64,000 nt of DNA, taken from NCBI GenBank assembly GCA_965220965.1, contig OZ244852.1, forward strand, positions 2,176,001 to 2,240,000, read 5' to 3'. Below the pieces are notes generated by a model. It did not search any database, was not told the origin of the DNA, and worked only from the letters and a program-made list of their open reading frames with translations. The stretch is from Candidatus Marinacidobacterium sp. (GTDB lineage Bacteria; Acidobacteriota; Vicinamibacteria; Marinacidobacterales; Marinacidobacteraceae). Position numbers and translations under genes: made by a program. How positions within the stretch are numbered: the first letter of the stretch is position 1; each line of letters opens with the position of its first letter. Positions 3 through 2,192 of the stretch are shown here, in pieces.

Positions 3-1022
3 CGCCGGGGGGCCGAGGTCACGGTGTTCGAGCGGGAGGGGCCCGCCGCCGGCGCCACCGGCAACTCGTTCGCCTGGATCAACGCGAACTACTCGAAGCG
101 GCCCCACTCCTACTTCCAGCTCAACTGGCTCGGGCTCCAGGGCTGGCGGGGCCTCGAGGCGGAGGTGGGGCATGGCCTCCAGGTGACCTGGGGCGGAAGC
201 CTCGAGTATCGGGACGCGCCGGACCGGGCCGGAGCGCTGCGCGAACAGCTCGCCCGCCACCAGCGCTGGGGGTACCCGGTGCACGCGGTGGACGCGGAGG
301 AGTTCCGCCGGCTGGAGTCGGGCGTCACCCCGCAGCAGCCGATTCTGGGCGCCGCGTGGGCGAGCGCCGAAGGCAGCATCGAGCCGCGTTCCGCCACCCG
401 GGCGCTGCTCGCCGCGGCCGAGGCGGAGGGCGCCCGCTTCGTCCGGGCGGAGGTCACCCGCCTCGACCTGGGCTACGGGGCGCTCCGGGGCGTCGCGACG
501 AGCGAGGGCGAGTTCGAGCTGGACACGCTCGTGCTGGCCGCCGGCGTCCAGGCGCCGGGGCTCGCGCAGCAGGCGGGCGTGGACGTGCCGCTCGTGGAAT
601 CGCCCGGCATCCTCGCCCACTCGGCGCCCACCGGAGCGGCTCTTGGACGGATCCTCCTGGCGCCCGAGATCCACGCCAAACAGACCGCCGAGGGCAGGAT
701 CGTCGCGGGCGTCGGTTTCGCCGGCGCCGGCTCGACGGACGCCTCGATGGCGGTCGGCAAGGGGATCCTCGAGACGACCGCGAAGGTTCTCCCGGCCGCC
801 AGCGGACTCGATGTGGACGAAGTCACGCTCGGCTACCGGGTCCTTCCGAAGGACGGCCACCCGATCGTGGGCTTCGATCGCGGCGCGCCCGGGATCTACT
901 TCGCCTCCATGCACAGCGGGGTCACGATGGCCCCGACGATCAGCCAGTTCGCCGCGATGGAGATCCTCGACGACGTCGAGATCGCTCTCCTCGACGACTA
1001 CCGCCTGGCCCGTTTCCGGTAG
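3..1022 (+). CDS. FAD-dependent oxidoreductase, DAO/glycine oxidase family (5' truncated by window)
   Basis: Frame open from the window start (RRGAEVTVFERE..GATGNSFAWIN); C-terminal RVLPKDGHPIVG..HSGVTMAP motifs typical of the DAO family. Confidence 0.85.
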   Translation, partial: RRGAEVTVFEREGPAAGATGNSFAWINANYSKRPHSYFQLNWLGLQGWRGLEAEVGHGLQVTWGGSLEYRDAPDRAGALREQLARHQRWGYPVHAVDAEEFRRLESGVTPQQPILGAAWASAEGSIEPRSATRALLAAAEAEGARFVRAEVTRLDLGYGALRGVATSEGEFELDTLVLAAGVQAPGLAQQAGVDVPLVESPGILAHSAPTGAALGRILLAPEIHAKQTAEGRIVAGVGFAGAGSTDASMAVGKGILETTAKVLPAASGLDVDEVTLGYRVLPKDGHPIVGFDRGAPGIYFASMHSGVTMAPTISQFAAMEILDDVEIALLDDYRLARFR

Positions 1023-1047: not shown

Positions 1048-1159
1048 CAAACAGAACCCTTCGGGCTGCCGCTGTGGGGGTGGGGTGGGTCTCGAGGCGA
1101 CAGCCCCCGGACAAGCCGGACGCCGAATGGGTAGGGGGTATAAACAATCCACCCGACGC
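1048..1159 (-). ncRNA. Candidate small RNA with two stem-loops carrying C-rich loops (6C-like architecture)
   Basis: Lies between convergent genes. Minus-strand 11-bp stem 1159-1149/1130-1120 and 10-bp stem 1106-1097/1072-1063 with G.U pairs; loops contain ACCCCC. Extended -10 sits 7 nt upstream; the 3' end is U-rich. Confidence 0.6.
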
Positions 1160-1166
1160 AGGAAGG

Positions 1167-1177
1167 AATGTACCACA
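1167..1177 (-). promoter_or_regulatory. Extended -10 promoter TGTGGTACATT for the candidate sRNA
   Basis: TG-n-TAnnnT consensus in an otherwise GC-rich region; the predicted start site coincides with the first stem base (1159). Confidence 0.55.
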
Positions 1178-1211: not shown

Positions 1212-2192
1212 TCAGGCGGCCGGAACCGAGGGCGCCGAGGGGCTGCGCCCCGCATGGCGATACGCCGCGAAGACGAGCTCGAGGTCGCGGCGGGCGCGGC
1301 CGAAATCCGAAATCGGTCGGTGGGCGGGGTCGCCCACGGCGCGCAGGAAGTCTCCGGTCATCGCCCGGAACCCCATCAGGTCCGCCAGCGGGCCCATTCG
1401 GGCGTGGACGAAGGGGCCCCGGGAGCGGGTGGCGAGCGCGGCGTAGAGGCCGTTGCTCTCGAAGACCACCCGCCCCCGCTCTCCCTCGATGCGGGAGTGC
1501 TGCAGGACGCCGCCGGGAAGCGAGCGGGCATCCCAGCCGTAGCGGATCTCGCCGACCGCGCCGGACGGGTAGCGCGCGGTGACTTCGGCGCGGCGTTCGG
1601 GGTCGGTCCCGGGGGAGAAGACAGCTTCCACGCTCTCGGGGACTTCATCCAGCAGCGCGCCCAGCAGCGCCACGAAGTGGATGCCGCCCTCGAGCAGGGC
1701 GCCGTGGCGACTGCGCCAGTCCGGAGTCTCCTGGCGCGTCAGCTTCGTCAGGCGGATCCTGCGGACCGGACCGATCTCCCGGGTCCACGCGCGGAGACGC
1801 CGGAGAAGGGGCTTGTAGAGGTAGTTCTCGGCGACCATCAGCGCGCCCGGGGGGCGGCCTTCGAGGGCGCGAGCAATCCGGTCGAGTTCCGGCGCCGCAG
1901 CGACCAGCGGTTTCTCCACGAGGACCGTCTTGCCGGCTTCGAGCGCCGCGACCGTCTGGTCGGCATGGGCGTCGAGGGGCGTCGCCAGGACGATGCCCGC
2001 AACATCCTCCCGGGCGAGAGTCGCCTCCAGGTCGGCGACCGTCTCGCCGCCGAAGCGCGCCGCGAATTCGCGGGCCGAACTCTCCCGGCGGCTCGCGAAG
2101 AGGAGTCGCGCCCGGCCCCGCAGATTCGCGGCGTGGACCCGGCCGATGCCGCCGCAACCCACGACCGCGATGGTTGGGAGCGAATCCGTCAC
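1212..2192 (-). CDS. Gfo/Idh/MocA family oxidoreductase
   Basis: N-terminal GCGGIG Rossmann motif, VLVEKP motif, GALLEGGIH. Confidence 0.9.
   Translation of the reverse strand: MTDSLPTIAVVGCGGIGRVHAANLRGRARLLFASRRESSAREFAARFGGETVADLEATLAREDVAGIVLATPLDAHADQTVAALEAGKTVLVEKPLVAAAPELDRIARALEGRPPGALMVAENYLYKPLLRRLRAWTREIGPVRRIRLTKLTRQETPDWRSRHGALLEGGIHFVALLGALLDEVPESVEAVFSPGTDPERRAEVTARYPSGAVGEIRYGWDARSLPGGVLQHSRIEGERGRVVFESNGLYAALATRSRGPFVHARMGPLADLMGFRAMTGDFLRAVGDPAHRPISDFGRARRDLELVFAAYRHAGRSPSAPSVPAA

Follow-up and report, generated by a model that had tools for sequence, protein, structure and literature searches.

The 189-bp gap between two convergent oxidoreductase genes in a 64,000-nucleotide stretch of a Candidatus Marinacidobacterium sp. 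genome (GenBank assembly GCA_965220965.1, contig OZ244852.1, positions 2,176,001 to 2,240,000; hereafter, the window) is filled by an element that is almost certainly a real structured RNA gene. This gene is located on the minus strand, probably has its own promoter and, judging by the genomes searched here, is restricted to one family of Acidobacteriota, class Vicinamibacteria, that is known from marine and sponge-associated metagenome-assembled genomes (MAGs). We propose that it encodes a trans-acting small RNA (sRNA) of ~105-130 nt that represents a new acidobacterial RNA family and pairs with G-rich ribosome-binding sites; taken as a whole, we give this statement about an even chance of being correct.

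Architecture of the element

An earlier examination of the window by sequence alone (hereafter, the sequence-only reading) had placed in this gap a candidate stand-alone sRNA with two C-rich-loop hairpins. All the features described there are present on the minus strand, base for base, including the gap between convergent genes, the extended -10 element, the 7-nt spacer to the first hairpin, and the three stems. The minimum-energy fold of positions 1165-1030 (RNAfold) consists of exactly these hairpins plus a fourth one. The following features, denoted P1 to P4 for the hairpins, were read from the sequence, with P4 present in both the minimum-energy and the centroid folds:

1177-1167, minus strand: extended -10 promoter element TGTGGTACATT (TGn followed by TACATT), with a predicted transcription start at ~1160-1158
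1166-1160, minus strand: 7-nt spacer CCTTCCT
1159-1120, minus strand: hairpin P1, stem GCGUCGGGUGG (1159-1149) paired with CCAUUCGGCGU (1130-1120), 11 bp including four G.U pairs
1148-1131, minus strand: P1 loop (loop 1), 18 nt, containing ACCCCCUA
1119-1107, minus strand: short hairpin P2, arms CCGG (1119-1116) and CCGG (1110-1107), loop CUUGU
1106-1063, minus strand: hairpin P3, stem GGGCUGUCGC (1106-1097) paired with GCGGCAGCCC (1072-1063), 10 bp
1096-1073, minus strand: P3 loop (loop 2), 24 nt, C-rich, reading CUCGAGACCCACCCCACCCCCACA
1062-1049, minus strand: linker GAAGGGUUCUGUUU, consisting of an invariant GAA, a G-run (GGG here) and then UUCUGUUU
1048-1030, minus strand: hairpin P4, arms GCGGCC and GGCCGC, loop AUCGUGG, with no U-run after it

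The RNA is predicted to extend from ~1159 to either ~1050 or ~1030. In the 64-kb window, the exact motif TGTGGTAYATT, which covers the promoter element, was found a single time, compared to 0.00 expected occurrences. A single sequence proves little on its own, and the evidence that exceeds chance comes from the comparison with relatives.

A single-copy element conserved throughout one family

When the 189-bp spacer was used as a BLAST query, 28 of the 61 related genomes were matched, namely the window's own genome and all 27 other genomes of the same family, and none of the 33 genomes outside the family. All seven genera of the family carry the element, in a single significant copy per genome; the exception is one genome (G027) with an additional 25-nt partial match (E 6.6e-4), and no second copy was found by BLAST in the window's own genome. 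The identity of the element across the 28 family genomes is 72-100%, with the flanks diverging, and conservation is highest in a core that corresponds to window positions 1129-1057 (77-93% identity). Within one genus (g2), the RNA is 97-100% identical, compared to mostly 72-97% for 260-nt windows of the flanking genes, a crude comparison that was made at fixed offsets.

A covariance model was built from the 28 family copies; it matches these by construction, and its value lies in the negatives. The model found the element in none of the 8 and 19 genomes of two sister families. Elsewhere in the phylum, 150 sampled genomes yielded only two matches, both with E ~0.09. When one genome per prokaryotic species was scanned with a sequence pattern, 36 loci were obtained, 27 of which were confirmed by the covariance model; all 27 belong to records titled Acidobacteria, Acidobacteriota, Vicinamibacteria, Vicinamibacteraceae or Ca. 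Marinacidobacterium. The remaining nine loci come from other phyla and were dismissed as chance occurrences, with no model match at the pattern site. In particular, no match was obtained for the actinobacterial pattern loci from Streptosporangium, Arthrobacter (two loci) and Acidimicrobiales, and the only match in a Solirubrobacteraceae record (L066) was weak (E 0.58) and lay outside the pattern site. In metagenomes, the pattern AGACCCACCCMWCCCC occurs in at least 118 stretches; among the 80 loci listed, there was no model match with E<0.01 and one with E 0.089; this pattern is too loose, and the result says nothing on the occurrence of the element in metagenomes. The non-actinobacterial host that the sequence-only reading had guessed at is thus indeed a member of a different phylum, Acidobacteriota.

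Covarying helices, strand and promoter

The alignment of the family copies, when analyzed with RNAalifold, yields the same three helices, P1 to P3, with 22 pairs, 6 of which show compensatory changes. Counted on 26 distinct alignment rows (570 cells), 99.6% of the cells are paired, compared to 32-50% when the registers are slid by 1-3 columns, and the observed covariation score was reached in none of 500 shuffles. The three helices differ in their mode of conservation. P1 has eight pairs common to the alignment, of which four show two-sided and three one-sided changes, so that seven of the eight vary, with 99.0% of the cells paired. The four pairs of P2 are formed in every copy, with one compensatory change (G-C to A-U or U-A), and the loop of this hairpin varies in both sequence and length. 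In P3, nine of the ten pairs never vary, and the remaining one covaries (U-A to C-G in three copies and U.G in one). The conservation on which the sequence-only reading had staked its candidate is therefore observed, in the form of a single-copy element that is present in the whole family and contains covarying helices.

G.U or U.G pairs account for 86 of the 570 paired cells; among them are a U.G in P3 that never varies and the closing G.U of P1, which is nearly invariant. Because these pairs become A.C mismatches on the plus strand, the structure exists only on the minus strand, as had been argued from the single sequence, and this is also the strand of the promoter. The alignment gaps are 7, 2, 1, 1 and 2 columns long, which rules out a conserved reading frame.

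A TAnnnT hexamer is located 6-7 nt before P1 in all 28 family copies when these are anchored at P1, and a TG two bases upstream, which makes an extended -10 element, is present in 27 of them (TGTGGTA in 19). The bases flanking this box differ between genera. That such a conserved box lies between P1 and the upstream gene's stop codon argues for an independent start of transcription.

The C-rich loops and the 3' end of 16S rRNA

In the alignment, the C-rich loops appear as the most conserved part of the RNA. All 28 copies agree in the core of loop 2, AGACCCACCC..CCCC, and in 14 loop-2 positions altogether; in the six genera other than that of the window, the invariant stretch reaches 17 nt. Loop 2 carries the C-runs CCCACCCCACCCCC.

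Loop 1 in the same six genera reads GUUCACCUCCUUACA, and the 3' end of the 16S rRNA of the window organism itself reads GGAUCACCUCCUUUCU; the two have in common the 10-nt sequence UCACCUCCUU. By this identity, loop 1 of the six genera is an anti-Shine-Dalgarno mimic. In the window's genus, loop 1 is longer (...CACACCCCCUAA in two relatives and UAUACCCCCUAC in the window's own genome) and contains CCCCC instead of CCUCC; despite this change, it retains the GAUCAC of the same 16S segment.

Relationship to known RNAs

The search of positions 950-1300, on both strands, against the 4,227 families of Rfam 15 (cmscan, E<=10) produced no matches, and neither did the search of the whole window at the gathering score. 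Thus, none of the families that had been named for comparison in the sequence-only reading (6C, Acido-1 and Acido-Lenti-1) matches, in agreement with its suggestion that the RNA might be undescribed. No description of an acidobacterial sRNA of this kind was found in a full-text literature search of a limited collection. Acido-1 and Acido-Lenti-1 come from the same phylum and include some small structured RNAs of unknown function, without a model match here. The element represents a new RNA family that probably works like a known kind of RNA, one in which conserved, unpaired C-rich loops are displayed on stable stems; such loops, on covarying stems, are what the alignment contains.

Among the closest analogs in design is the actinobacterial 6C RNA (B11 of Mycobacterium tuberculosis), the C-rich loops of which bind multiple mRNAs through G-C-rich contacts without the chaperones Hfq and ProQ (PMC6486639). 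The 6C RNA is, like the element, a small stand-alone RNA of a high-GC bacterium in which stable hairpins expose conserved C-rich loops, and its pairing is independent of Hfq; the window's own genome, which is 94% complete, yielded no Hfq domain (PF17209). Two hairpins with C-run loops, as in 6C, are found here in P1 (CCCCC or CCUCC) and P3 (CCCACCCCACCCCC), a resemblance in design only. Unlike in the case of 6C, the host belongs to Acidobacteriota, there is a third small hairpin and a variable fourth one, the loops are much longer (14-24 nt), and in six genera, the 16S 3' tail is reproduced in loop 1; there is no homology of sequence or structure. The Xanthomonas sRNA sX13 contains three stems with apical C-rich loops (4C/5C) and represses, independently of Hfq, mRNAs with G-rich motifs near the start codon; in its G+C-rich host, such motifs can serve as ribosome-binding sites (PMC3771888). 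This RNA resembles the element in size and in the arrangement of consecutive stable stem-loops with apical C-runs. The two RNAs are not homologous, however; the element has C-rich sequence in just two of its three conserved hairpin loops, that of P2 being variable, and is confined to one acidobacterial family.

Alphaproteobacteria possess sRNAs with CCUCC loops, of the CcsR or 'cuckoo' type. UCCC or C-rich loops are also present in sRNAs of Firmicutes, namely RNAIII of Staphylococcus aureus, the Rsa RNAs and RsaE/RoxS, as cited in PMC3771888. The element has in common with both groups an unpaired, C-rich or anti-Shine-Dalgarno-like loop, which in those sRNAs blocks initiation by pairing with the Shine-Dalgarno region. 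The phyla are unrelated, though, and the motifs of those sRNAs are shorter, whereas here, the match to the 16S tail reaches 10 nt and the second loop is invariant over the 17-nt stretch in six genera and at the 14 positions in all 28 copies.

A proposed mechanism

The RNA, which is probably transcribed independently from the minus strand, folds into P1, P2, P3 and a variable terminal hairpin, with P1 and P3 displaying long single-stranded C-rich loops. By analogy with the RNAs above, these loops would act in trans: by pairing with ribosome-binding regions of mRNAs that are G-rich and resemble Shine-Dalgarno sequences, they would keep out the 30S subunit and thereby reduce translation and possibly also mRNA stability; the multiple G-C pairs involved would probably make an Hfq-type chaperone unnecessary. 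Of the modes of action considered here, this is the best supported; whether the loops do pair with G-rich ribosome-binding sites is, in our assessment, an evenly balanced question. Of the 6C-like RNA envisaged in the sequence-only reading, the C-rich loops on a conserved structure have stood up; the pairing with G-rich mRNAs follows from analogy, and the target scan was undiscriminating.

The window's own genome was analyzed with home-made gene calls (1,940 open reading frames (ORFs), with self-called starts, of which 1,939 start regions were scanned). A peak of GGAGG is located 9-15 nt before these crude start calls and is accompanied by a smaller peak of GGGGG, so the organism uses classical Shine-Dalgarno sites. 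A genome-wide duplex scan with both loops found many sites at -35 to -40 kcal/mol, the top ones in wrong-frame or repeat contexts, and no excess relative to reversed loops.

Outside the window, two near-identical stretches of ~130 nt lie ~650 nt apart in the same genome (G000:C1, ~1,345,130-1,345,830). On one strand, these contain GGGGGGTGGGGTGG, which complements loop 2 perfectly over 13 nt, and on the opposite strand CCACCCCACCCCCC. Noise matches in nhmmer suggest a tandem repeat of ~650-850 nt in the same region, where there is no credible ORF start.

Genomic neighborhood and expression

The genes on both sides of the element encode oxidoreductases of different families:

1212-2192, minus strand: Gfo/Idh/MocA-family oxidoreductase (Pfam PF01408, 6e-18, and PF22725), upstream neighbor on the same strand as the RNA
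24-1022, plus strand: DAO-family FAD-dependent oxidoreductase (Pfam PF01266, 3.6e-39), convergent downstream neighbor

This arrangement is conserved as far as it was examined. The Gfo/Idh/MocA gene is located upstream on the same strand in all four relatives queried in the correct frame (G016, G013, G007 and G010), and the DAO gene is convergent in the three relatives checked by Pfam (G019, G015 and G002). At 20 of the 28 loci, the DAO gene product starts with a twin-arginine-type N-terminus (M-RRRR-FL..., of the RRR-x-FL type, followed by a GxGxxG fold), and to judge by this signature, the enzyme is probably exported via the Tat pathway. In the window's own genome, the true start of the DAO gene may lie just upstream of the window.

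With regard to expression, contigs from two RNA libraries of one study, labelled sponge metagenome, carry the 3' two-thirds of the RNA of a same-genus relative and run from the DAO 3' end through P4, P3 and P2. In neither library do contigs cover the Gfo/Idh/MocA gene or the first ~10-50 nt of the RNA, a gap that carries no weight as evidence. The contigs are at most compatible with expression; the strand and the ends cannot be deduced from them, and DNA carry-over is possible. Two other data sets (X3 and X4) contain the stretch at 100% identity and may be the source assemblies.

Alternative explanations

Several observations weigh against the proposed trans-acting sRNA. The fold energy of -52.3 kcal/mol is unremarkable (z +0.24, with 116 of 200 shuffles at least as stable); the plus-strand fold has a z-score of +0.27, its centroid retains only P4, and the z-scores of the single sequence do not discriminate on either strand. 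A terminator scan of positions 800-1500 found no sites, and neither did a consensus promoter scan, which demands a -35 box, none being detected. The alignment is dominated by close relatives, with 16 of the 28 copies coming from one genus and an effective sequence number of 1.38, so that the covariation rests on about seven lineages. A stem that needs only to pair should drift more than the P3 stem, which is near-frozen in sequence, a hint at protein recognition. The CCCCC in loop 1 of the window's genus would mismatch the canonical GGAGG and therefore, a simple model in which the RNA binds every Shine-Dalgarno sequence does not fit all members of the family. No target stood out either: the duplex energies of the loops at the 1,939 crude start regions show no excess over reversed loops or inner-gene windows (for loop 2, the mean is -12.41 for real and reversed loops alike), although at 71% G+C, target scans have little discriminating power and are uninformative rather than negative. 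The complement of the 17-nt stretch of loop 2, when sought in the 28 genomes with up to 3 mismatches, occurs with 0-1 mismatch only at the gene itself, and the start region of the neighboring DAO gene contains no G-rich motif. Finally, wherever checked, the RNA is placed just downstream of the Gfo/Idh/MocA gene, so that co-transcription is possible.

The unremarkable fold and the empty promoter and terminator scans are what would be expected if the hairpins were a chance product of a GC-rich spacer, devoid of function. This explanation is hardly credible at all, since every one of the 28 family genomes carries the element, with 72-100% identity between diverging flanks, all three helices contain compensatory changes, and none of the shuffles reached the covariation score; an alignment artefact of shared recent ancestry is unlikely given the seven genera involved. 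The conserved position of the element could instead mean that it is the 3' untranslated region (UTR) of the Gfo/Idh/MocA mRNA, acting as a stabilizer, a terminator or the source of a processed sRNA, and perhaps also as a cis-antisense partner of the DAO transcript. Indeed, in the window's own genome and four relatives (four genera), it begins 35-60 nt downstream of the stop codon of a same-strand gene of this one family, the DAO gene is convergent at all checked loci, and contigs from the RNA libraries connect the element to the DAO 3' end, making overlapping convergent transcripts possible. Nevertheless, the TGn-TAnnnT box is fixed 6-7 nt from P1 in 27-28 of the 28 copies, whereas the stretch that separates it from the stop codon is variable; the element surpasses the preceding coding sequence in conservation, which is unusual for a passive 3' UTR; and neither the tail nor P4 resembles a classical terminator. 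An intrinsic terminator or a passive 3' UTR was rejected on account of the absence of terminator sites in 800-1500 and the conserved -10 box before P1, and the 3'-UTR or antisense explanation in general appears quite unlikely.

The main rival, kept alive by the near-invariant P3 stem, is a protein-binding role, in which the RNA would bind or sequester a protein through P3 and the 16S-tail-like loop 1 instead of pairing with mRNA; we regard this as unlikely, if distinctly less so than the 3'-UTR origin. Among the conceivable partners are an RNase, a protein of the KH or another type with affinity for C-rich RNA, and a factor whose normal binding site is the 16S 3' end. Stems frozen in sequence are typical of protein or tertiary contacts, and here, nine of the ten P3 pairs and the 14 positions of loop 2 never vary, whereas seven of the eight P1 pairs do. 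The 10-nt identity of loop 1 with the 16S tail in six genera, the GAUCAC that is retained in the window's genus and the failure of any mRNA target to stand out fit a protein partner as well. There is, however, no candidate for such a partner among the co-occurring genes, which are two oxidoreductases without RNA-binding domains, the pairing of C-rich loops with G-rich sites is established in other GC-rich bacteria, and a failed target search is to be expected at this G+C content and does not favor the rival.

The 3' end and the proposed switch

Downstream of P3, the sequence CCCGAA is invariant in 28 of 28 copies. It is followed by the G-run of the linker, which is GGGGG in most relatives and is conserved in five of the seven genera, with the four g6 copies and the single g3 copy being different. 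This G-run could belong to the stem of a terminator or base-pair with one of the loops. In the relatives, a hairpin of unrelated sequence occupies the position of P4, with the G-run as its 5' arm in some of them, and is in some cases followed by U-runs, such as U7 in G022 and U4 in G015. Thus, P4 is a possible variable terminator that may serve both convergent genes. The U-rich tail of the sequence-only reading exists (GAAGGGUUCUGUUUG) but is U-rich only to a moderate degree, and the terminator scan detected no site there. A pairing of loop 1 (CCUCC or CCCCC) with the G-run of the tail was also considered, but neither genus g6 nor the window's own genome conserves this tail. The conformational switch that had been suggested on the basis of a competing stem gains no support from the relatives: in most copies, the competing CCC-GAA-GGG stem is only 3 bp long, and genus g6 does not conserve the 3' half of it.

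Apparent loss of the signal recognition particle pathway

A second feature of this family emerged when the possibility was examined that the element is a diverged form of a universal RNA. The signal recognition particle (SRP) RNA (RF00169) is found above the cut-off in none of 19 family genomes, compared to 12 of 12 sister genomes (e.g. L102-L107), and RF01854 is absent as well. An nhmmer profile of the sister SRP RNAs gave a best E-value of 1.3 in the window's own genome, and a search for the SRP domain-IV motif yielded nothing convincing. A sub-threshold RF00169 match (21.7 bits, with a GGAA tetraloop look-alike; L108:501-579, corresponding to G000:C1:2296323-2296401) was discarded as spurious; it lies inside a long minus-strand ORF for a CrtI-like FAD oxidoreductase, and its BLAST conservation in 14 of the 28 genomes is due to the conservation of the coding sequence.

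The protein components follow the same pattern. The M domain of Ffh (PF02978) is absent from the window's own genome and was detected in only 1 of the 28 family genomes versus 26 of the 27 sister genomes, the lone family match being a fragment of the C-terminus, located where a 2,886-bp contig of a 270-contig MAG ends. The SRP54-type GTPase domain (PF00448), which is contained in both Ffh and FtsY, is found in none of the 28 family genomes and in all 27 sister genomes (the counts for sister family f2 include the unpublished genome G036), usually in two copies ~5 kb apart, for example, L235 and L233, which hold Ffh and FtsY in G033. A tblastn search of the window's own genome with Ffh and FtsY from one sister genome recovered only a 48-residue P-loop match (E 0.001). 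The 16S rRNA, RNase P RNA, tmRNA, 63 tRNAs, SecY and YidC are all present in this genome and therefore, the search method does not fail in general. The entire SRP pathway (Ffh, FtsY and SRP RNA) thus appears to be missing from the family, in which genome sizes are 2.7-4.9 Mb, and this loss may explain the completeness scores of 87-95% of closed family genomes. A full-text literature search of the same limited kind found no description of SRP loss in Acidobacteria. The apparent loss of the pathway may be a more surprising result than the RNA itself.

The element described here is not a derived SRP (4.5S) RNA. This possibility was rejected given the lack of an Rfam match at E<=10 and the presence of three local hairpins rather than one long hairpin; moreover, the only short apical loop, that of P2, varies freely in sequence and length, unlike the GNRA tetraloop of SRP RNA domain IV with its conserved AGCA-type flanking loops, and apart from the one fragment, the partner Ffh was not found. 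The phyletic patterns of the RNA and the SRP pathway are nonetheless mirror images: all 28 family genomes but none of the 27 sister genomes carry the RNA, and the SRP54-type GTPases are found in 0 of 28 and 27 of 27, respectively, on a single branch (n = 1). In E. coli, suppressors that lower translation initiation make SRP dispensable (PMC7844537). Conceivably, then, the RNA might be a global anti-Shine-Dalgarno decoy that arose on the branch of the SRP loss and slows initiation so as to widen the window for SRP-independent targeting, which, if true, would make it a natural counterpart of those suppressors. We consider this highly improbable, and a crude test found no bias of loop complementarity to membrane-protein genes (p = 0.83 and 0.21).

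Other observations on the window's own genome concern RNA genes. The 6S RNA (RF00013) was not matched, a result that is uninformative because no more than 5 of 14 genomes were positive in the control. The main contig carries tRNA-Sec, and the 363-kb second contig contains nine tRNA genes within 1 kb (G000:C2:271,965-272,943) and two more elsewhere.

Implications

Hardly any regulatory RNAs have been characterized in the abundant Acidobacteriota, and the lineage described here is uncultured and represented by MAGs only. The element constitutes a clean RNA family and can be curated as it stands: its taxonomic range is defined, its promoter is conserved, and both an alignment and a covariance model are available. 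If the proposed mode of action is correct, the design in which C-rich loops pair with G-rich ribosome-binding sites would extend to a new phylum, with an unusually literal copy of the 16S anti-Shine-Dalgarno tail that is amenable to testing in reporter systems.

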